IMG/VR virus record: IMGVR_UViG_3300025014_000002
Reading direction: 5' to 3' (one strand)
DNA length: 64,000 nucleotides
Source of the DNA: a virus
Made by a program: the position numbers and the translations under genes. This document shows, one piece after another, positions 3,237 through 52,549 of the stretch. Each line of letters starts with the position of its first letter. The first letter of the stretch is position 1. Under the pieces are notes generated by a model. The model was given only the letters and a program-made list of their open reading frames with translations, was not told where the DNA came from and did no database searches.

Positions 3237-6200
3237 TTACACAGCAATATATGAGCGTAAAACTTTAGCAGTATTGCCTGCTGCAGTACCTGTCGCTTCT
3301 AATATTACGTTACCACCACTTATATTAGCTGTAAATGTCGCAAAAGTTGATCCTGTGGAGCTAGTAACACCATAGGTCGTAATGTATGCGTTAATCCCAT
3401 TGTGGACCACTAATACTTCAGCAACTTGATAGTTTGACCCATTAGTTACTGACACTACATATTTCGCACTGCGATATGTTGCTGCGGCAAAAGTATCTAT
3501 TGTAGTTGCTGATGTTCCAAAACTCGTGCCAGCTTCTGTTGCTACCAATGGAGCCCCACCAGACAATGTCAAAGTAGTGGTTGCTTCAGCAGTTGTAAAC
3601 TTGCCAGTTGATGGTGTTACTGCACCAATGGGTGTATTATCTACGGCTGACAAGCTGAAACTTACACCGCTAATAGAACCACCGCTGATTACCACGTTGC
3701 TTGCATAGATATTATCTACTACTGCAGTTGGACTACCAATGTCACGGCCTGCACCTACTGGTAACAATGCACCAGTTGCCCCGTCAAACTTCCAAGTATT
3801 TGTACTTGAAGTAAGTCCAGTCCAAACTTCTAATGCTGAGTCATCAGGAATGATTTGGTTAAATCCATTTGGACTTGCCAATCCGCTAATAGTTTGCGTT
3901 GTAACCAATACACGAACATCAATAACGTCTGTTGTTAATGGAGCCCCACTGAACTGCAAGGTCGTACCCGCAACACTGTATGCTAAACCAGGGATTTGAA
4001 CCACACCGTTAATACTTACAATAGTGCTGTTTGTAGTGGATGCTGCATTCAACACAAAGTTGGTTGTCGTACCGTCACCAGTAAACTGCTGATCAGTAAT
4101 CAGTGTAAACACTGTTTCAGTAGATGCCCATTGTGAACCGTTCCAGAACTCAAGTTGATTGAAAGTTGAGTTATAACGTGCCATACCTGCTACTGGAGTA
4201 GCTGGGCGTTGACCGCTTGTACCCACTGGCAGTATAATAGAGTCGTTACTGTTGATTTGCAGTTTCGCACCAGCAGTAAATCCACTTGACAACGCTACGT
4301 TACCACCAATCATAACTTGATCAGTTGATGCACTTGCAAACAACAAGGAGTCGTCGTTAACGCCTTTAATCACAGTGTTAACTGCTGTCTTGTTGCTGTT
4401 GATCGTTGAGCCTTCACCAATATTAACGTTACCAGACACACCAACACCGCCAATCACTACAATCGAACCCGTTGAGGTTGATGTGCTAGCAATGTTAGCA
4501 TTAGCTGTAAACTGCCCTGTCACTGTGCTAGTTGCTGCTACCAGTGTTGTAAAGTCACCAGTGCTGCCAGAGATTGGAGTGCCTGTAATAGCACCGCCAG
4601 TTACTTGAGCATTAGCTGTTACCAAGCTGTTAACAGTAGCAGCACCGCTTGTTGACATTGTTGTGAACGCACCAGTTGATCCAGAGATTGGAGTGCCAGT
4701 GATCGTTCCACCTGTCAACGCAACGTTACCCGATACCAAGTTCGTTACTGTGCCAGTTGTTGCTGCCAATGTTGTGAATCCACCTGTGCTGCCAGATATA
4801 GGAGTGCCTGTAATAGCACCACCAGACACCTGAGCGTTAGCTGTAGTCATTGTTGTAAAGACACCAGTTGAGCCGCTGATTGGAGTAGAGTTGATGACAC
4901 CACCCGAAATCTGTGCGTTACCAGTTGCTAATGTAGCAGCGTTTACTAATCCAGCAGTCGTAGTGCCTGACACTGTCAAGTTAGCCAATGTACCAAGACC
5001 AGTTACGTTTGGCTGATACGCTGTTTGCAGTGTACCAGTAATGCCAGCGGATGCTGACAGTGTTGTAAAGTCACCAGTGTTACCAGAGATTGGTGTATTT
5101 GTAATCGCACCACCTGAAATATGTGCGTTAGCTGTTACCAACGATCCAGTAGTAGTAGCGTTGGTTACGTCAAGCGATGTCAATGTGCCAAGTGATGTTA
5201 CGTTTGGCTGTGCTGCAGTTTGTAGCGTACCAGTAATACCACCTGTTGCTGACAACGTTGTAAACGCACCAGTGCTTGGAGCAGCATTGCCGATTGGTGT
5301 GTTGTTGATGCTTGTGGCCGACAACAAACCTGCGTTCAATGTTGTAAACGCACCAGTAGAAGGTGTTACACTACCGATCGGGGTGCTGTCAACTAAACCA
5401 CCCGTAATCTGCGCATCAGCCGTGGTCAGTGTGTTAGCGTTAACCACCATGTTGCTGATTGATCCAGCAGTTGTTGGGTTAACTGTTACCGTACCAGTTG
5501 CTGGCGACAAGGTTACGCCGTTATTAGCTGTTACTGTGCCGTTAAACACTGTCGCAGCGTTAGCAGTTACCGCACCTTCAAGTGCTACTGTGCTGTTGGC
5601 TGTTACTGTGCCGTTGAACACTGCGGCACCGTTCGAAGTCACTGTGCCTGCTGTATTCAAATCTGCTACGTTTGCTGTGCCACTTACTTGCAAGCTGCTT
5701 GTAACGGTGTCTGTTGCTGTTAGCGTTGTAAACGTACCGGTCGAAGCGATTGCGTTACCGATTGGCGTGTTGTTGATGCTTGAAGCTGTGAAACTATCTG
5801 CAGTTAAGGACGTGAACGAACCAGTTTCTCCAGAGATCGGAGTGTTTGTAATGGTGCCACCAGTTATTGTAACGTTGCCCGATGCCAAGTTTGTTACTGT
5901 ACCGTTAGTTGCTGCCAAGTTAGCTAACCCAGTTACGTTGCCACCAGTTACTGTAACGTTGCCTGATGCCAAGTTTGTTACTGAACCAGTTGTTGCTGCC
6001 AATGTTGTCAAACCAGTTATGTCACCGCCAGTTACTTGAGCGTTAGCTGTAGATACTGTACCAGCAGATGCTGTGCCAGTTACTGCCAAGCTAGTCAAAG
6101 TGCCAACGCTTGTTACGTTTGGTTGAGCTGCTGTCTGCAGTGTGCCAGTTAGGTTTGTACCAACCACGTTACCGCGGAATTCTGTCGACACCACTGGCAA

Positions 6201-9200
6201 GTTCAAGTTCCAAGTCTGTGTGGCCTGTGTGTACAAGATCGTTGCTGCTGCTGGACCGTCAACTGTAATACCAGCACCGTCTGCTGCTGTATCTGTCAAC
6301 GCACCTTGGGCAATAGTAATGTTTTTGTCAGCTACGTTTAATGTTGACGATGTCAATGTTGTCATGCTACCAACAACTTCCAAGTTGCCAGTTACAACAA
6401 CATTACCGCCTACGTTCAAGTTTTTAGCAATGCCAACACCACCGTCAACTACCAGAGCGCCGTTAGTAATAGCAGTGCTTTCAGTTGTATCTGTAATGTG
6501 TGTCAAACCAGATGCTGACAAGGTCGTAAACGCTGCAGTGCTTGGAGTAGCATTGCCGATTGGTGTGTTGTTGATGCTTGTAGAAGTAAAGCTACCTGCC
6601 GTCAAGTTCGTAAAGCTACCAGTGCTGCCAGATATTGGAGTGCCTGTAATAGCACCACCAGTTACTTGAGCGTTGGCCGTTACTAACGATCCTGTTGATG
6701 TTTCACCAGTTACGCTAACGTTACCGTTAACTGCCAAACCAGTCAATGTGCCAACGCTTGTTACGTTTGGCTGTGCTACTGTTGTCAGTGTACCACCAAC
6801 ATCGGTTGCGTTCATCGTTGTAAATGTACCTGCTGCTGCAGTTGTGCCACCAATAACCGTGCCGTCAATAGCACCACCAGTTACTTGAGCGTTACCGGTA
6901 GTCAACACTGTGAAGCTACCAGTTGAGCCAGAGATTGGAGTGCTTGCAATCGTTCCGCCTGTGATAGCCACAGACGGTGAGGTCATCACTGTAAAGCTAC
7001 CAGTTGATCCGCTTACTGTAGTGTTTGTAATAGCACCGCCAGACAGTGCAACATTACCCGATGTCAAGTTCGTTACTGTACCGTTAGTTGCTGACAAGTT
7101 AGCTAAACCAGTTGCAGATCCGCCAGTTACTTGAACGTTAGCTGTTACCAAGCTGTTAACGTTAGCTTCACTGCTTGTTGCCAATGTAGTAAACGAGCCA
7201 GTTGATCCAGAGATTGGTGTAGCTGAAATAGCACCGCCAGTGATCTGTGCGTTGCTTGTCGTCAATGACGATAAGGTTGCTGTGCCGCCAGTTATTGTAA
7301 CATTGCTTGATGTCAAGTTCGTTACTGTGCCAGTTGTTGCTGACAGTGTTGTCAAACCAGTTACGTCGCCGCCAGTCAATGTAGCATTGCTTGATGTTAA
7401 GTTTGTTACTGTTCCAGTTGCTGCTGTTAGGTTAGATAACCCAGTAACTGAGCCGCCAGTTACTTGGGCATTGGCTGTTACCAAACTGTTAACGGTTGCT
7501 GTATTGCTTGATGTCAACGTAGTGAAGCTACCAGAGCTGCCAGAGATTGGTGTGCTTGTAATAGCACCGCCGGAAATCTGTGCGTTTCCTGAAGTTAAGT
7601 TAGTAACCGTGCCGTCAGTGGCTGACATTGTTGACAGCCCAGTTACACTACCGCTTGTAGCTTGTAGGTTAGACACCGTGGCTGTTGTAAACGAACCAGT
7701 TGATCCAGAGATTGGAGTGTTAGCAATCGTGCCACCAGTTAATGTAACATTGCTTGATGCCAAGTTCGTTACTGTACCAGTTGTTGCTGACAATGTCGTT
7801 AGTCCAGTTACATCACCGCTTGTGGCTTGCAAGTTAGATGCGGTTACTGATGTCAAAGTTGCTGTGCCGCCAGTCAACGTAACATTGCTCGATGTCAAGT
7901 TCGTTACTGCTCCAGTTGTTGCTGACAGTGTTGTTAAACCAGTTACGTCGCCGCCAGTTACTTGAGCGTTAGCTGTTGTCAATGTACCAGTGCTGGTATT
8001 ACCAGTAATGGATGCACTTGCGCCAGAGATCGCACCAGTTACGGTTGCGGAACCACTAACACCAATGTTTGGAATATTGACATCTTTGTTAAATGTCCAG
8101 TCGTCATTTGTACCTGAGTACAACATAGTAGCATTCGCGCCAGCTACTGTCAAGCCAGCACCGTTAGCTGTTGCGGAATCTATTGCCCCAGATGCTAGAG
8201 TAATGTTTACGTCTGCTGTGGACAATGTTGTAGAGTTAACAGTAGTGCTGGTTCCTTGAACTATCAAGTTACCACCAATGATTGTATCGCCGCCTACGTT
8301 CAAGTTCTTGGCAATACCAACGCCGCCTGCCACTGTCAACGCACCATCCGTAGTAACGGTTGACTGTGTGGTATCAGTAATGCTTGTTAAACCAGTTGCT
8401 GACAATGTTGTAAACGCACCAGTTGAAGGTGTAGCATTACCAACTGGAGTGTTGTTAATAGCTACTGCTGTGATGCTATCTGCTGTCAAGTTTGTGAAAT
8501 CACCAGTTACTGCGCTTACTGTTGTGAAACCGGTTGCTGACCCACCAGTTAATGTAACATTGCTTGATGCCAAGTTCGTTACTGTACCAGTCGTTGCTGA
8601 CAATGTCGTCAGTCCAGTTACATCACCGCTTGTGGCTTGCAGGTTAGATGCAGTTGCAGTTGTAAATGTCCCTGCTGCTGCTGTCGTACCACCAATAACC
8701 GTGTCGTCAATAGTACCACCAGTTAATGTAACATTGCTTGATGCCAAGTTCGTTACTGTACCAGTTGTTGCTGACAATGTCGTTAGTCCAGTTACATCAC
8801 CGCTTGTGGCTTGCAAGTTGCCTGTTGTTAAGGTTGTGAAGCTACCAGAGCTGCCAGAGATTGGTGTGCCTGTAATAGCACCGCCGGAAATCTGTGCGTT
8901 AGAAGTAGTTACTGATGTGAAACTGCCAGTAGCGCCAGTGATTGGAGTGTTAGCAATCGTGCCACCAGTTAATGTAACATTGCTTGATGCCAAGTTCGTT
9001 ACTGTACCAGTTGTTGCTGACAATGTCGTCAGTCCAGTTACATCACCGCTTGTGGCTTGCAAGTTGCCTGTTGTTAAGGTTGTGAAGCTACCAGTGCTGC
9101 CAGAGATTGGTGTGTTTGTAATAGCACCGCCGGAAATCTGTGCGTTAGAAGTAGTTACTGATGTGAAACTGCCAGTAGCGCCAGTGATTGGAGTGTTAGC

Positions 9201-23012: not shown

Positions 23013-23693
23013 TCACTGAAAACTCAGGTTCTTTTTACAGTTATCTCCGTGCCAACGTGCGTATCCGTTTACAGCTACTTCTTTATCGCAGTGGGGGCAA
23101 AGTTTTTTCTCTCGCTTCATACCGCGTATTGCGTCTGCTTTTTTCGATATAGTTTCGGCAGACTGTTTTCTTCCTAACGCCTTAGCGCGTTGTTTTGCTC
23201 GTGTGGCGTCACTTATAGAGACACCAAACCGATGATTCTTTTCTCCAGTGCGGGCTGCTGACAACTTTGCCTTCCATTCATCGGAGAATTTAGGCCTCCT
23301 TTTCCCACGTTTACTTGCACTAACTTTTTCGCATTGCTCTGGTGTTAGTTTAGACCCAGTATTCATTTTAGAGATGTATGCTGCATAATCTTCACGCAAT
23401 TTTGCAAATGCTCTACTTGTTATTTTTGTTTTGTACCTATGCTGATTTGCGTTTTCTCCCTGCATCATTACCAAGGCGTTAATCATTTTCCCTCTTTCTT
23501 GCCCTGCATGAATTTTAGTAAGCAACCAATGGCATACAAAATGTTGTCTAGCACTTAAATTGACTAAGTTTGCAGGATCATTTGTACCGCCCAAACTGCG
23601 AGGAATAATGTGATGCGTTTCTGTGTAACCCGCAAATGGTTCAGTTCTTGCTTGATCAATTATGCTGTCATACCAAACTGTGTATTTGCTCAT
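23013..23693 (-). CDS. HNH homing endonuclease with NUMOD3-like repeats
   Basis: ETHHIIPRSLGGTNDPANLVNLSARQHFVCHWLL HNH motif; basic NUMOD3-type repeats; own late promoter at 23714-23721. Confidence 0.85.
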   Translation of the reverse strand: MSKYTVWYDSIIDQARTEPFAGYTETHHIIPRSLGGTNDPANLVNLSARQHFVCHWLLTKIHAGQERGKMINALVMMQGENANQHRYKTKITSRAFAKLREDYAAYISKMNTGSKLTPEQCEKVSASKRGKRRPKFSDEWKAKLSAARTGEKNHRFGVSISDATRAKQRAKALGRKQSAETISKKADAIRGMKREKKLCPHCDKEVAVNGYARWHGDNCKKNLSFQ

Positions 23694-36453: not shown

Positions 36454-37290
36454 ATGACTGAAAATCAAAATCCTCTTGCGAAACACTTTAGACAACCCGT
36501 TATTCACTTTAAGTTGCCAAGCAACGGTGCTTTTTGGCCAGAAGGTGCGTTAGACTTACCAGTAACTGGAGAGTTGCCCGTGTATTCAATGACAACTAGA
36601 GATGAAGTTATTATACGCACCCCCGATGCGCTGTTAAATGGTAGTGGAGTAACTTCAGTTATTCAATCTTGCATCCCAGAAATCAAAGATGCATGGAAAA
36701 TGCCCAGTGTTGACGTTGATTCTGTGCTTATTGCTATCAGAATCGCAAGTTACTCCAATACCATGGATATTGAAACTACATGCCCACATTGTAAAGGTGA
36801 AAATACTTACGGAATTGACTTGCATAATGTGTTGGCAAATATTACTGTTCCTGATTTCAATAAATCCTTTACTATTGACGGGTTAACTTTCAAGTTTAAG
36901 CCGCGTCAATATTTTCAAATGAATAAAGCAAATTTAGTTGCTTTTGAAGAGCAAAAGTTAATTAACACTATTCAAAATACAGAGTTGGCAGATTCTGAGC
37001 GAACTTCATTGTTTTCGCAACATTTGAACACGATTGTTGATCTTTCGAACCAAATGTATGTTGACTCTACAGAATATATCTTAACCCAAGACAATGTTAA
37101 AGTAGATAACCCAGTGTTTATTAACGAGTTTTACAAGAACAGTGGCAAGAATGTTACTAACCAAGTGAAAAAAATACTTGAAGATTTTGCTGAAACTGCG
37201 AAGATTAAACCTGTGAAGGTTGTATGCAGTGAGTGTGAGAAAGATTTTTCAGTTAATCTTACCTTCGATCATTCCCATTTTTTCGCCTAA
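36454..37290 (+). CDS. Baseplate hub/tail assembly chaperone (T4 gp26-like)
   Basis: IHFKLPSNG, ELPVYSMTTRDE, DVDSVLIAIRIASY, CPHC and CSEC motifs; ends in a T TTT TTC slippery site. Confidence 0.65.
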   Translation: MTENQNPLAKHFRQPVIHFKLPSNGAFWPEGALDLPVTGELPVYSMTTRDEVIIRTPDALLNGSGVTSVIQSCIPEIKDAWKMPSVDVDSVLIAIRIASYSNTMDIETTCPHCKGENTYGIDLHNVLANITVPDFNKSFTIDGLTFKFKPRQYFQMNKANLVAFEEQKLINTIQNTELADSERTSLFSQHLNTIVDLSNQMYVDSTEYILTQDNVKVDNPVFINEFYKNSGKNVTNQVKKILEDFAETAKIKPVKVVCSECEKDFSVNLTFDHSHFFA

Positions 37291-37792: not shown

Positions 37793-37846
37793 GGTGATGC
37801 TTAACGCATCACCTGACTTTCGCTATCGCGTCGCGATAGCTCAGTC
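37793..37846. repeat. Two adjacent perfect 8 bp hairpins
   Basis: GGTGATGC-TTAAC-GCATCACC (37793-37813) and GCTATCGC-GTC-GCGATAGC (37822-37840). Confidence 0.8.
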
Positions 37847-37904
37847 CTTTTTAGTTTTTGGATTTAGGATGATTTAAATTGAATAATGTTATATAAACAC
37901 GTTA

Positions 37905-38640
37905 TCGCTATCATTTACATAACCGACACCTGAGCGGTTTTTGCGAGCTACTGAAAGTAGCGACCAGTATTGCCAATTACCAAGAGCCAGCACGGCAAAT
38001 GTGAGTCAAAGAAAATCAAATCAAATCATGATTTGAGCCTTCTTGACTCTACGCTTTGCAATTTACCTGTCGCCCTTGCACCTATATCTTCGTTTTAATG
38101 GAGGGGATTGACTATGTCACTCTCAACCAGAAAAATATATTACTCACCCGAAATATTATTTTTCCTGGCACGAAGCGCGTTCGTTAGTGGTACGAGTAAA
38201 GGAGTAAACCGTTACTTTACGCACCAAGCATGATCAAATATATTAGGAAAATGATCTGCCGCTAACCCAGTGGGATATACCGTCTATTATGAACCACCGG
38301 CCGCTTTGGTAAAACCTGTTAAACTATTACTAAAACATCGCTCCAACGTGTGACCAGTTTTTCAGGCACTCAACGCCACCTTGGGGATGATATTTTTTAT
38401 GGTTCCTTTGCTTCTTACACAAAGGTAGGACTGCTCATCGCAGTGTAATAGCTCGCGTAGAGTTCGCTTACAGCAGTGGGCCACACCACCAATGAGGGCC
38501 TTGCCACACAGATACAGGTCAGACTCTGTGCAAATCCATTTCTCTACTAATACTTAAACAGGTGTACTAGCCCGCTGTGTGCATGTGCCTTTGTGGCTGG
38601 GCTTTTTTCAAAAATAATAAGAGATGGTCTCTGATAGCGA
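37905..38640 (-). ncRNA. Candidate large structured non-coding RNA (about 740 nt), class unknown
   Basis: No ORF of 60 aa or more in any frame; 9 bp end-to-end pairing TCGCTATCA/TGATAGCGA; more than ten local helices; late promoter upstream. Confidence 0.55.
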
Positions 38641-38650
38641 AATATATACA

Positions 38651-38802
38651 ATAATTATGTCGTTTTATAAAAATCTATAAAACTGACTAGACGTTTCAAC
38701 GAATCTACCTTTGGTATTTCTACCTTAGGATTTACTGACTCTCTACGTCTGTAATCGGATAATTCTTCCGATGTAAGTGAGTAAAGATCATTTAGACCTT
38801 TA
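38651..38802 (-). ncRNA. Orphan omega-RNA (reRNA) scaffold; predicted guide 38631-38650
   Basis: 90% identical to the 3' end of the tnpB element; compensatory A:U/C:G pair in the ATCGG hairpin; terminal GTTTTATA/TATAAAAC hairpin retained. Confidence 0.7.
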
Positions 38803-38902
38803 CTCAAAACTCATTTTGTGAAATTTAATTTTACCTCCAGTTCCACAAAGTCATTCTAGTTATTTTAAGATCACCATATAAATTATATTAAAGTTATATG
38901 AC
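38651..38902 (-). mobile_element. Non-autonomous TnpB-family mini-element (left end plus omega-RNA scaffold, no ORF)
   Basis: 38651-38802 matches 52378-52529 at 137/152; 38863-38909 matches 51216-51262 at 40/47. Confidence 0.85.
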
Positions 38903-38910
38903 TATTTATG
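38903..38910 (-). promoter_or_regulatory. Late promoter motif CATAAATA immediately upstream of the mini-element
   Basis: Same motif as the other late promoters. Confidence 0.65.
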
Positions 38911-38921
38911 GTAATTTAAAT

Positions 38922-39455
38922 TTAGTAGTAATATTTTTCTAATCCATAAGGAAAAAATTTGTCATCAGATTGGGCTAAAAAATCTTTTAACCTGTAGCCG
39001 AAAACTTGGTTGTAATAAAATAGTGGGTTTAAAGTTGGTTGACGTTTTTCAACAAATACAAGATCGTCAGTCCCGTTGTATTTGATTATAAGAAGCATTT
39101 CTTTTTTGCTATTTCTAGCGTCCTGAGTTGCTTGCTTAATCCACGTGTCCCATTGTGCGACTTTACCCTTCACAATGGCAGCGAACGTGGGGCCTGCTTT
39201 ATAGTTTTTACACTCAACGGAGTATTTGAATCCATCTGGGCAAATCAAATCTCCAAAGTTAGCGTGGTTTAAATCATGTGTCACGACTCGGCGTTGATTT
39301 GAACCACCAAAAAATGAGCCAGAATCTGTATTCCTACGGAAAGCGGATGAAATTCCAGTTACCTTTTCGAAGCGAGATGATAGCAAGTTAGATATCTTGC
39401 GCTCATACGAGGAACCTTTACTTTTGCCGTTGACTTTAGGAGTTACTGTGCTCAT
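38922..39455 (-). CDS. Holliday junction resolvase-like PD-(D/E)XK nuclease
   Basis: KSKGSSYERKIS...GDLICPDGFKYSVECKNYK motif, next to recombination genes. Confidence 0.7.
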   Translation of the reverse strand: MSTVTPKVNGKSKGSSYERKISNLLSSRFEKVTGISSAFRRNTDSGSFFGGSNQRRVVTHDLNHANFGDLICPDGFKYSVECKNYKAGPTFAAIVKGKVAQWDTWIKQATQDARNSKKEMLLIIKYNGTDDLVFVEKRQPTLNPLFYYNQVFGYRLKDFLAQSDDKFFPYGLEKYYY

Positions 39456-39716: not shown

Positions 39717-41516
39717 TCACTCAACTACTACTGCTTCTTCATTAGCATCTTCTGTGTCGTCAGTAATATACTGTGTAAACCCACCCTCTTTCTGGACCTT
39801 CAAAATGTTCCCGACACGACTGATAAGCTCATCCTTGTGTGAGATCAGCCAAATACTCTTCTGTGAATCTCGGGCCATCCGCTTGAGAACGCCCATTACG
39901 CTTTCAACGCCACTTGAGTCCAGCCCGTTGTCAATCATCTCATCAATGAACAGAAGGTTGACTGCCTCGTGTGCTGATTCCCATACGTCGCGGAACGACA
40001 GGCTCAACGATAAGATGACCCGTGTCATCTCACCGCGGCTAAGGTTGTAAAAATCAAGCTCACGGCCAAACTCTTCAATGCTGACTGTAAGATCACTCTG
40101 GAACACTACCGTGTGTGGTAGCCCTATTTTTTCAAGGTAGTAAGAGAGCCGTGCGTTGAGGTAGGTAAGATTCTGATCGATAATCCGTTTGCGGATGAAA
40201 CTGTCCTTGTTAGTGAGGAGCTTGAGCAGGAACTCTTGATGATCCTTGAGCTTTGAAGCAGCGTCAATGGTCGTATAGTCCACGACGATGAGTGCGGCCT
40301 CCTCCATCTCCTGGATCTGCTCACTGTATGGATTGACCTCACCAAGTTTGCCCTCGAGCTGCTGTGTGAGGTGCTGAACTGAGCTCTTATGATTATGAGC
40401 GTCAACGATTTTTTTGTAAAACGTGCTCTTTGCAGTCCCAACGCTCCCAATTGCCGCAATCTGCTCGTTTATCTTGACTTTTGCTTCCAAAAGTTCCACG
40501 ATCTGAGCCTCAGCCTCTTCCAACACCGCGATCTTACGCTTCAAGATCTCCTCTTGCTTGCCATCGTGCAAATCCTGCCCGCAAGCGTGGCACTTGTGAT
40601 CCTTGAGTGCTGTGATTTCTGCTGTAGTAGTGTCTCGTGTTCGCTCTTCGCGGGTAAGCTCTGTGGCAGTGCGAGTCAACGCTTTCTTATGATCGTCAAG
40701 TTTTTTCACTGCCAACGCTATCTCATCGTTAGCAGCGTGTGTATCAATCTCAGCATCAATGTCTACCTTGAGCAATTCTTCCAAAGAACTTGACAAATCA
40801 GCGATATCGACCTCATGTTTCGCTTCCCACTGTGCGCTACGCTTCTTGAGAGCGGCGACCTGCTCTTCTATTTTCTTGTTTGCCTCAACACACGCTTTGA
40901 TACGCTGTTCTTCTGCTGAAATCGTGTCCTTGGTAGCGCGAATCTGCTCTTTAAGAGCATCCGACTTCTCACTCAGCACTGTTATGCCAAGCAACTGCTC
41001 AATGATTGTGCGTTGATCGTTAGCTCTGAGGCTCAAGAACGGTTCAGTGTAAGTGTTCAACGCGACCACATTCTTGAACATATCATGCGACATACCTAAG
41101 ATACGATCAATCTCAGCCTGGGTCTCACGAGAATCACCTTGAGCATCATCATCCTGCGCTGCAAACGCGACATCTCCCTTGTAAAACTTCAAGACATTGG
41201 GTTTACGCCCGCGTTCAATCCTGTAAGTGACCCCATCCTTAACAAAGTCAATCGTAGCAAGCATGCCCTTAGCATTAGTCCGGTTGATCAAGTTGTCACG
41301 ACGAATGTCGTTTATTGCCTGCCCAAACAAGGCATAACTCAAAGCGTTAACGATAACAGACTTACCAGCCCCATTACGTGACCCAGCATCATCACCGCCT
41401 AAGTCTAAGTTTTCACCCAACACCAAAGTTAAATCTTTTCTATCAAAGTTTATAGCCTGGGTATTATTCCCAACTGACATGAAATTTTTTGTAGTGAGAT
41501 TTTTTATCGTAAACAA
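39717..41516 (-). CDS. gp46: Recombination endonuclease ATPase subunit (gp46/Rad50/SbcC-like)
   Basis: Walker A NGAGKS, zinc hook CHAC, signature LSRGE, Walker B LLFIDE. Confidence 0.92.
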   Translation of the reverse strand: MFTIKNLTTKNFMSVGNNTQAINFDRKDLTLVLGENLDLGGDDAGSRNGAGKSVIVNALSYALFGQAINDIRRDNLINRTNAKGMLATIDFVKDGVTYRIERGRKPNVLKFYKGDVAFAAQDDDAQGDSRETQAEIDRILGMSHDMFKNVVALNTYTEPFLSLRANDQRTIIEQLLGITVLSEKSDALKEQIRATKDTISAEEQRIKACVEANKKIEEQVAALKKRSAQWEAKHEVDIADLSSSLEELLKVDIDAEIDTHAANDEIALAVKKLDDHKKALTRTATELTREERTRDTTTAEITALKDHKCHACGQDLHDGKQEEILKRKIAVLEEAEAQIVELLEAKVKINEQIAAIGSVGTAKSTFYKKIVDAHNHKSSVQHLTQQLEGKLGEVNPYSEQIQEMEEAALIVVDYTTIDAASKLKDHQEFLLKLLTNKDSFIRKRIIDQNLTYLNARLSYYLEKIGLPHTVVFQSDLTVSIEEFGRELDFYNLSRGEMTRVILSLSLSFRDVWESAHEAVNLLFIDEMIDNGLDSSGVESVMGVLKRMARDSQKSIWLISHKDELISRVGNILKVQKEGGFTQYITDDTEDANEEAVVVE

Positions 41517-50837: not shown

Positions 50838-51194
50838 ATGGCACTCTATAATGGGTTTTCGACAGTTAACCGCAGCAAGAAGTTTGTAATACACGACTTT
50901 GAGCTGGCGAAGCAGGATTTAATGAATCACCTTTTTATTAAAAAAGGTGAAAAAATCATGGACCCTAACTTTGGAACCATAATATGGGGTGTGTTGTTTG
51001 ACCAGCTAACGGACGAACTCAGAGACGCGATATCAAAAGACGTGACTAAAATAGTTAACTCTGACCCTAGACTCGTCGCAAACAATATTACCCTAACTGA
51101 ATACCAACACGGAATTCAAGTGAAAATAGAGCTAACCTTTGTTGAAACTGATCAGAAGGATGTTCTCTACGTCAACTTTGCACAGTCAAAGTAA
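50838..51194 (+). CDS. gp25: Baseplate wedge protein (gp25-like)
   Basis: KQDLMNHLFIKKGEKIMDPNFGTIIW...DPRL motif. Confidence 0.85.
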   Translation: MALYNGFSTVNRSKKFVIHDFELAKQDLMNHLFIKKGEKIMDPNFGTIIWGVLFDQLTDELRDAISKDVTKIVNSDPRLVANNITLTEYQHGIQVKIELTFVETDQKDVLYVNFAQSK

Positions 51195-51214
51195 TATACT
51201 AATATTATCGCAAC

Positions 51215-51222
51215 GATAAATA
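51215..51222 (+). promoter_or_regulatory. Late promoter motif GATAAATA immediately upstream of the TnpB element
   Basis: Same motif as the other late promoters. Confidence 0.65.
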
Positions 51223-51289
51223 ACTATATAACTTCAATATAATTTATATAGTAAACTTAAAACATTAAATAAACTATATAATATAATTT

Positions 51290-52525
51290 ATGACTCAATT
51301 AGTTCTAAAAGCATTCAAATACCGAATCTATCCCACTAAGGAACAGACTAGTTTTCTAGACCGTAACTTTGGAGCGGTTAGATATATCTGGAACCAATTC
51401 GTTGCATCTTTCAATCATAATTTTATTGGTCCTTGTTTGCCTCAAGACGAAAAGTTCATTAAAGACCTACCCGGAAAAGAATTCTTGACTGAAGTAATTA
51501 GTTACGGTCTACAACAGAAAAGAATGGACTGGGTTGAATTCAAGAAGCAATTCTTTTCTAAAAAGAGAGCAGTCAAATTAGGTAGACCAAAGTTCAAGAA
51601 AAAAGGAGTTTCTAATGATTCATTTAAAATTCCAGGTCAATGTCTAAAATTTAATTCCTGTATAAATTTTGAGACTTCTAGAATCAAATTACCAAAGATG
51701 TCGCCTATTAAACTAGTTATCGATAGAAAATTTTCTGGATTGTTGAAATCGGTAACAGTATCAAAGAATAAAGCCAACCAATATTTTGTTTCGGTTCTAG
51801 TTGAAGAACCTATAGAGCTGAAACAAAATACCGGTAGGAGTATTGGTATTGATCTGGGTTTAAAAGATTTACTTATCTGTTCAACAGGCATGAAAATCAG
51901 TAATCCTAGATGGTTTCGTAAAACCCAAACGAAACTAAAAATAACTCAAAGAGCATTTAGTAAGAAAGTTAAAGATTCATCCAGATACAAACAGATGAAA
52001 CTTAAAGTGGCTAGACTTTATCTAAAAGTAACTAACCAAAGAAAGTTTATTTATGATAATCTATCAACTTGGTTAGTAAATAACTATGATACCATAATTA
52101 TGGAATCACTTAAAGTCAAGAATATGATTAAGAATAGAAAATTATCTAAGTCAATTCAAGATGCTTCTTGGTCTACTTTAATCGGAATGGTCAGCTATAA
52201 ATCTAACTGGTACGGTAAAACGTTCCATCAAATAGATACTTGGTTTCCTTCTTCTAAAACTTGTTCTTGTTGTGGTCATAAACTAGAATCTTTAGATCTC
52301 TCTATAAGAGAATGGACGTGTCCTAGTTGCAATACTAAACATGATCGAGATCTAAATGCTTCAGTAAACATACTCTATAAAGGTCTAGATGATCTTTATA
52401 GTTTAACATCGGCCGAATTAGCCGATTACAGATGTCGAGAGTCAGTAAATCCTAAAGTAGAAATACCAAAGGTAGATTCATTGAAACGTCTAGTCAGTTT
52501 TATAGATTTTTATAAAACGGCATAA
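51290..52525 (+). CDS. tnpB: RNA-guided endonuclease TnpB, catalytic residues apparently intact
   Basis: N-terminal KAFKYRIYPT..Q; RuvC-I GIDLGLK; RuvC-II IIMESLKV; zinc finger CSCCG/CPSC; RuvC-III HDRDLNASVNI. Confidence 0.92.
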   Translation: MTQLVLKAFKYRIYPTKEQTSFLDRNFGAVRYIWNQFVASFNHNFIGPCLPQDEKFIKDLPGKEFLTEVISYGLQQKRMDWVEFKKQFFSKKRAVKLGRPKFKKKGVSNDSFKIPGQCLKFNSCINFETSRIKLPKMSPIKLVIDRKFSGLLKSVTVSKNKANQYFVSVLVEEPIELKQNTGRSIGIDLGLKDLLICSTGMKISNPRWFRKTQTKLKITQRAFSKKVKDSSRYKQMKLKVARLYLKVTNQRKFIYDNLSTWLVNNYDTIIMESLKVKNMIKNRKLSKSIQDASWSTLIGMVSYKSNWYGKTFHQIDTWFPSSKTCSCCGHKLESLDLSIREWTCPSCNTKHDRDLNASVNILYKGLDDLYSLTSAELADYRCRESVNPKVEIPKVDSLKRLVSFIDFYKTA

Positions 52526-52529
52526 TTAT
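52378..52529 (+). ncRNA. omega-RNA scaffold overlapping the tnpB 3' end; predicted guide 52530-52549
   Basis: Expected location for a TnpB reRNA; hairpins ATCGGC/GCCGAT and GTTTTATA/TATAAAAC; conserved in the orphan copy. Confidence 0.7.
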
Positions 52530-52549
52530 CATAGTCAAGGATCAAAGCG

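Follow-up and report, generated by a model that had tools for sequence, protein, structure and literature searches.

Our question was what a short, protein-less element is doing in the genome of a phage that carries a full-length TnpB element 12.4 kb away. A preliminary description made from the letters alone had read this locus as an orphan omega-RNA module that supplies the phage TnpB with a second guide in trans, for cutting empty alleles in co-infecting phages. The window, by which we mean the whole 64,000-nt stretch of viral DNA that was analysed, is part of a T4-like aquifer phage according to its Pfam gene calls, and its DNA was recovered from many aquifer metagenome runs. The genes called from Pfam include a baseplate protein (36454-37290), a PDDEXK endonuclease-like gene on the minus strand (38922-39455; PDDEXK_15, E 4.9e-24), a gp46-like SMC/AAA protein, also on the minus strand (39717-41516), and gp25 (50838-51194). 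Megablast of the window against phage records gave no match, and a distant search of those records returned a Campylobacter phage transposase fragment as its sole match. Nothing meaningful came from Rfam, run at gathering cut-offs over the whole window and in E-value mode over both elements, a tRNA search found none, and the DUF5710 protein yielded nothing useful as a probe for relatives. A free-standing homing-endonuclease-like gene with HNH and NUMOD3 domains lies among the head genes (23013-23693, minus). An ORF-free stretch of about 800 nt (37830-38610) separates the element from the DUF5710 gene; it has no Rfam match, is 85.5% identical between lineages, and contains a hairpin (38569-38603) in which the lineages differ by one compensatory change; on the plus strand a T-run comes after it.

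The element, which we call the mini-element, is roughly 250-280 bp long and is read on the minus strand. An extended left part (38896-38930) is common to other copies, absent from mini-less alleles and moves with the element, and next to it is a left-end core beginning AACTTT (38863-38895), recognized by homology to the left end of the resident element. Then come the interior (38803-38862), which by alignment to a full-length copy on another viral contig (L003) is a decayed remnant of the tnpB 3' coding region, the right end (38651-38802), which corresponds to a 152-nt omega-RNA scaffold and is homologous to the resident right end, and a 20-nt flank immediately 3' of it (38631-38650). The right-end match that had been reported, 38802-38651 (minus) against 52378-52529, was reproduced at 137/152 with no gaps (blastn E 1.3e-55). 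At the left end the homology held up, and the earlier count of 40/47 is replaced by 42/50 between 38912-38863 (minus) and 51213-51262, a match that takes in 17 nt further left than the core. The distance between the two ends, described as about 60 bp with no nuclease ORF, is exactly 60 bp. The only ORF of the mini-element has 50 codons, starts with TTG and is left over from the frame of the TnpB C-terminus, and the interior has frame-breaking indels relative to tnpB, aligning to the zinc-finger/RuvC-III coding part of L003 at 28/46 with 8 gap columns. Both copies diverge after CATAATTAT, as had been noted, and the next 20 nt differ; this is the last sequence shared between the mini-element and all other copies. 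The guide of a TnpB omega RNA is the flank that immediately follows the right end, and on this rule 38631-38650 is the predicted guide.

The same right end points to where the mini-element came from. It is 97.5% identical over 158 nt to the full-length copy L003, from which we conclude that the mini-element descended from a sibling of the L003 type. This agrees with the earlier proposal of a diverged sibling tnpB as the source, and the codons on which that proposal was based (TAC TCA CTT against TAT AGT TTA, both encoding YSL) are present and shared with L003. Judged by its sequence organization, the mini-element is a PATE/MITE-like, ORF-less deletion derivative of an IS605-family TnpB-only element, PATEs being protein-less IS200/IS605 derivatives that often encode omega RNAs needing TnpB from elsewhere (Meers et al. 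2023, PMC10055086). Its short interior lies between the left and right ends of a full-length family member, and protein-coding capacity is absent. Of the subterminal hairpins expected at both ends, the one at the right end is present and covaries; the left end is AT-rich, and in the window copy its core has a 22-nt deletion relative to other minis at the same site. L103/L011 and L125 have 20-22 additional left-end nt that include a family-conserved GTAAAAC motif. The insertion was not seamless, as 28 nt of target are missing at the right junction. A mini of exactly this form was seen at one site only and in one copy per genome. The exact left boundary of the element family is ambiguous. A 31-nt block starting ACTAAATTT is common to copies at four sites that have unrelated sequence further left, and mini-less alleles lack it, their homology picking up again at 38931; a left boundary placed simply at AACTT, as at the gp25-gp6 site, fails to explain this mobile block and was set aside.

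Whether the right end still encodes a folded RNA can be judged from an alignment of 12 right ends. The consensus contains 39 pairs in nine helices, with compensatory changes at 19 of the 39 pairs. With this structure held fixed, 96% of cells are paired, compared with 37-46% when the partners are slid, and none of 500 shuffles reached any of the five structure measures. The helix-2 loop also forms a five-pair pseudoknot with the tail that directly precedes the guide; it is 95% paired, and one of its positions covaries. The mini-element keeps all 39 consensus pairs. It had been claimed that the substitutions preserve structure, and none of the 15 differences from the resident scaffold in 152 positions breaks a pair, so that all are structure-neutral: 11 are unpaired, a further two together change one C-G pair to A-U, which is compensatory, and the last two turn a wobble pair into a Watson-Crick pair. 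Folding of the entire mini transcript gives z = -4.3, and its minimum free energy structure includes the scaffold helices. A population variant (L126) has a G-to-T change in a position read as part of the helix-3 stem. The scaffold draws on the 3' end of tnpB plus the right end, as expected of an omega RNA. Its homology begins at the codons just after the last residue alignable to ISDra2 TnpB (365) and ends at the right end, so the mini-element retains the whole omega-RNA-coding tail and little else. Taken together, the covariation and folding argue that the 152-nt omega-RNA scaffold in the mini-element is real.

A guide RNA of this kind would need a nuclease, and one is encoded in the window. 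The resident full-length TnpB-only IS is on the plus strand, and its boundaries can be read from an empty gp25-gp6 site in two contigs with flanking genes of about 90% identity (L014 and L015), where CTATAT runs directly into CATAGTC; this joint places the element at 51230-52529, with CTATAT before it and CATAGTC after it. A contig with the same empty joint also occurs in one DNA run that contains the window. The tnpB gene (51290-52525, plus) encodes 411 aa with the Pfam domains HTH_OrfB_IS605, OrfB_IS605 and Cas12f1-like_TNB; the scaffold is at 52378-52529 (plus) and the guide, the flank after CATAATTAT, at 52530-52549 (plus). With the TnpB of L003, the sibling that the mini-element most resembles, this protein shares 88% identity, and residues 6-365 align with ISDra2 TnpB (8H1J, E 2.6e-61; 8EXA). 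We take the catalytic residues of ISDra2 TnpB to be D191, E278 and D361; the D, E and D motifs and the CxxC motifs are aligned and present in the resident protein (GIDLG, MESLK, HDRDLN, CSCC...CPSC), and from these motifs the nuclease is apparently active. No Y1 TnpA was found next to the resident element or among the ORFs scanned. The resident guide differs from the coexisting empty allele of a second lineage, lineage A, at positions 12, 16 and 20 (52530-52549 against L014 3439-3458), and these mismatches might make that lineage a poorer target. Between gp25 and gp6 there are 78 nt in the empty lineage (L014 3358-3435, L015 2729-2806) and 35 nt in the window (51195-51229), and the extra roughly 50 nt contain a CGATCG-N4-CGATCG palindrome.

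Given the intact scaffold, a promoter-like box upstream of it and the catalytic residues of the resident TnpB, it is plausible that this TnpB uses the guide of the mini-element in trans. The reading we lean toward, by what we judge to be slightly better than even chances, is that the mini-element is a PATE-like derivative with a selected scaffold, whose RNA would be borrowed by the resident TnpB to make a second guide complex. In lineage A, which carries the mini-element, the gp25-gp6 site is empty on the same contig, thus the partner TnpB is not always visible.

Selection on the scaffold is best judged from the orthologous mini-element that lies in the same place in lineage A, which is about 10% diverged (L103 = L011). 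Between the window and lineage A the scaffold agrees at 149/152 positions and the guide at 20/20, whereas the interior agrees at 54/60 and has a 22-nt indel. Outside the mini-element, identity is 91.4% in the PDDEXK gene, 85.5% in the ORF-free region and 83.8% in the DUF5710 gene. By Fisher's test the scaffold differs from the interior with P 0.017, from the PDDEXK gene with P 0.004 and from the ORF-free region with P 1e-6, and all three scaffold substitutions between the orthologous minis fall in unpaired columns. Relative to L003 the contrast is sharper, at 147/152 for the scaffold versus 28/46 for the adjacent tnpB remnant (P 3e-9), and the step in conservation falls at the 5' edge of the scaffold RNA. 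Neutral decay of the scaffold in relatives had been named as an outcome that would speak against a used RNA; what we see is a scaffold that is not decaying and stands at 149/152, far above the interior and the neighbouring genes. The pattern suggests that the scaffold is held by purifying selection, and gene conversion by other copies or recent transfer could also produce it.

These last two processes are part of the most serious alternative, which we consider unlikely but deserving of weight, namely that the mini-element is an inert fossil: a dead deletion derivative with no used RNA, whose right end is young or gene-converted and which was spread by ordinary T4-type recombination. In DNA runs, depth over the family is 5-8 times that over the phage backbone, which would provide many conversion donors, and phage mosaics are frequent next to the mini site. 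Part of the left end is gone from the window copy, and right-end fragments lacking a left end occur elsewhere (L002, L005/L007 and probably L009), as decay predicts. The guide also misfits the natural empty alleles, as described below. However, identity within one element rises sharply from about 61% to 97% precisely where the scaffold starts at its 5' edge, none of the 39 pairs is lost, and the 6/60 substitutions plus 22-nt indel in the interior compared with 3/152, all unpaired, in the scaffold argue against simple youth of the right end.

Looking at the insertion site can help to decide what the guide might be used for. The preliminary description had called for a search for further copies and empty sites, and this search turned up many copies of the family as well as mini-less alleles in two lineages. 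The mini-less alleles were reached through the PDDEXK protein cluster (177- and 182-aa members), which led to contigs of lineage A (L111-L114) and lineage B (L128-L130). The 21-nt filler of the empty allele, which gave no hit in the search of viral contigs, was later found by this route. Relative to the mini-less alleles, 28 nt are replaced in the filled allele by 280 nt (38651-38930). On the left, the junction immediately follows an ATAT, in keeping with the family pattern, and the 28 nt lost at the right junction included a small hairpin and the original end of the gene. Consequences of this are visible in the PDDEXK protein, which is 177 aa and ends EKYYY in filled alleles, where the mini-element supplies the last two codons and the stop (window 38922-38935). 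It is 182 aa and ends EKYTAHSVLR in the empty lineage A alleles (L111 3520-3560), and it is 177 aa and ends EKYST in empty lineage B, as read from the DNA (L128 2120-2160).

With 28 nt gone from the filled allele, the guide match in empty alleles sits 28 nt from the ATAT. It is preceded by GTAT and not by the ATAT, ATAC or ATAG found at the left boundary of every family copy examined, and it is 19/20 in lineage A, with the mismatch at position 1, and carries a 2-nt indel in lineage B. The natural mini-less alleles therefore lack a target next to the transposon-adjacent motif (TAM) of the family, and the earlier claim that the second guide cuts empty alleles is contradicted by the GTAT context, the mismatch or indel and the 28-nt replacement. 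Cutting of existing empty alleles by the mini guide is thus unsupported, and an attack on natural empty alleles seems unlikely from their sequences. The last four letters of the right end are TTAT, and the nuclease must therefore be capable of rejecting T at that position. The guide fits a TAM-adjacent target only in a hypothetical precise-excision joint (ATAT plus the present flank). A clean empty allele, with the late-promoter block directly joined to the guide, was absent from the viral contigs, neither guide has other targets in the window beyond its own flank, and no empty sites for seven other insertion flanks were found among the loci examined. There was also a hint of a second form of the empty allele, in which TAATTAT precedes the target; it may have arisen by misalignment of the TAAGTAT allele, and we did not rely on it. 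The guide had also been assigned to the 5' stem strand of a candidate large RNA. The 10-bp complementarity with 37818-37827 is present in the sequence, yet about one 10-bp match is expected by chance in that span by our own estimate, and in lineage B two positions of the guide-side strand are changed, with the loss of two pairs and no compensation; we reject it as chance.

The distribution of filled and empty alleles bears on how the mini-element has spread. The identical odd junction is present in the window lineage (the window and L124-L127) and in lineage A (L103 and an L125-like form), and the lineage A empty alleles L111 and L112 are otherwise almost identical to L103. Since there is no way to regain the missing 28 nt, the empty allele must be the ancestral one, and recombination then carried one insertion from lineage to lineage. 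Around the mini-element, lineage A shares tracts of under about 50 nt on either side with the window lineage, and the same aquifer samples contain both filled and empty alleles. This spread fits nuclease-driven homing and ordinary T4-like phage recombination equally well. The stronger form of the homing idea is that the mini-element is a working guide-only drive element, such that TnpB with the mini omega RNA would cut rival genomes and repair would copy the mini-element into them. This would require that the adjacent-motif requirement is looser than the junctions suggest, or that the complex acts on excision-type alleles. If true, it would explain an odd insertion shared by lineages about 10% apart with conversion tracts under 50 nt, and would amount to evidence from nature that a protein-less element can home between viruses by means of TnpB; we consider it distinctly improbable.

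The wider family, collected by exact-motif, protein-based and exact-protein look-ups in viral and metagenome contigs, places the mini-element among related forms. The full-length copy L003/L060 is 84% identical to the resident element in DNA and 88% in protein, and more distant full-length elements (L061-L066 and L070) have 50-67% protein identity. An internal-deletion form of roughly 500 bp occurs at two sites (L001; L008/L010), and right-end fragments occur in L002, L005/L007 and L009. In L005 (about 1860-2260) and L007 (about 7050-7450, minus) the fragment is a right-end-only derivative of about 120 nt, about 84% identical and with an altered terminal hairpin, located after a AATAAATA box and before a gene start. 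Three contigs with full-length tnpB (L121, L122 and L123) have a gp25 or gp6 flank joined through the IS to other flanks; these may be further insertion sites or assembly chimeras across the repeat, and we used them solely as evidence for further insertion sites.

Under another alternative, the ends would be conserved since a Y1 TnpA, supplied in trans by the host or another element, still moves the mini-element, which would be only a cis-acting transposition substrate with an irrelevant RNA. The left junction is exactly after ATAT, as in IS200/IS605 insertion, related derivatives occur at several sites, each after ATAT or ATAG, and the usual subterminal hairpin is present at the right end. 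TnpA should need only the terminal hairpin region, as with IS608-type ends, whereas the conservation spans all 152 nt, including helices 1 and 2 at 100-150 nt from the end. Left-end sequence has moreover been lost in the window copy, tnpA is absent from the ORFs checked and a mini of exactly this form is at one site only, all of which makes this alternative very unlikely.

Signals for expression are present around the mini-element. The window contains 16 NATAAATA motifs, which correspond to the T4-type late-promoter core; several are directly before gene starts and one is immediately left of each element. A late-promoter-like CATAAATA lies at 38910-38903, just upstream of the mini-element and inside its extended left part. 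Both elements (window 38896-38930 and 51195-51229) and all related tnpB copies examined follow directly after (A/T)AAATA-N3-ATA(T/C/G), a T4-type late-promoter-like motif. At gp25-gp6 the empty allele already has the motif (L014 around 3357-3436, L015 around 2728-2807), and at other sites it is part of the mobile 31-nt block; the family may either target late promoters or bring its own. RNA-library contigs over the IS family and 38068-39135 are deeper than those over structural genes, a difference that cannot be assigned to the window mini-element, the contigs being multi-copy and without strand or ends. Terminator-like hairpins on both strands just beyond the guide fold no better than shuffles. 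It is highly improbable that the mini-element is instead a co-opted regulatory cassette, with its late promoter and leader driving the ORF-free region or the DUF5710 gene or with the element as a TnpB-titrating decoy. In favour of this, the mobile 31-nt block with CATAAATA is missing from empty alleles, and, as weak evidence from contigs only, RNA-library contigs over 38068-38601 are deeper than neighbouring genes. Against it, empty alleles persist in two lineages, so the cassette is not required, and the hairpin and U-run directly after the guide on the minus strand, with a fold that is not significant, could stop transcripts.

Comparison of the copies shows how the mini-element came about. 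A full-length sibling copy of the L003 type gave rise to it by deletion, and a single insertion directly after ATAT at the 3' end of the PDDEXK gene was accompanied by the loss of 28 nt of native sequence. Later recombination brought it into at least two phage lineages, and it retains the late-promoter-like box, part of the left end and the full 152-nt scaffold. In the reading in which the resident TnpB borrows the mini RNA, transcription late in infection would run through the scaffold into the flank, and the RNA would be bound and trimmed by the TnpB encoded at 51290-52525, so that a second TnpB-omega-RNA complex would form with the 20 nt at 38650-38631 as its guide. As the guide matches a properly placed target only in the precise-excision joint, its plausible role would be retention of the mini-element, or homing into that joint, and not an attack on ancestral alleles. 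A retention-type role is possible if TnpA is available; none was found among the ORFs checked, so excision, and hence retention, is unproven.

The mini-element is a clean natural case of a protein-less TnpB guide-RNA module in a lytic-type phage, and one aquifer community contains its filled and its empty alleles together with several deletion forms and a full-length partner. This makes it a tractable system for asking whether TnpB elements act as RNA-guided homing elements between co-infecting phages, and whether guide-only derivatives ride on a nuclease encoded elsewhere. Both ideas have already been proposed in the literature, so the value of the locus is as a test case and not as a concept. 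It also carries a caution against assuming that whatever flanks a mini-element must be a valid target, as the natural empty alleles here lack the arrangement of motif plus target.

The element is of a known sort, since PATE-encoded omega RNAs (PMC10055086) and standalone omega RNAs that act in trans (PMC10691335) have already been described. Like the PATEs of Geobacillus stearothermophilus, the mini-element has the left and right ends of an IS around a short non-coding interior, and its right end encodes an omega-RNA scaffold that would need TnpB from elsewhere. It differs from them in its setting, a virulent-type T4-like phage and not a cellular genome, in its phage late-promoter-like box, in its unclean right junction with 28 nt of target lost and in the single copy of the exact form per genome. 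Standalone omega RNAs of OMEGA systems are reported from genomes with effector loci, where they work in trans with compatible effectors and add target sites (Altae-Tran et al. 2021, as summarised in PMC10691335). The phage genome likewise combines an effector-less locus, with its extra guide, and an effector locus; compared with those RNAs, shown to act in trans, the trans role of the mini-element is a prediction from sequence. The resident protein resembles ISDra2 TnpB (8H1J, 8EXA) in its alignment over residues 6-365 with the D-E-D and zinc-finger motifs, and its omega RNA, as in ISDra2, overlaps the tnpB 3' end and the right end, with a 3'-tail pseudoknot suggested. Unlike ISDra2, for which the motif is TTGAT, the phage element has an ATAT/ATAC/ATAG-like motif beside it and no adjacent tnpA. 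As in homing by the free-standing endonucleases of T-even phages, filled and empty alleles coexist in one phage population and the insertion is found in diverged lineages with very short co-converted flanks. The mini guide, however, lacks a proper adjacent motif in natural empty alleles, and nuclease-driven spread of the mini-element is only a possible reading. A 2026 review that proposes "transposon non-restorative homing" (PMC13565253) puts forward homing of a transposon into co-infecting phages as a theoretical possibility.
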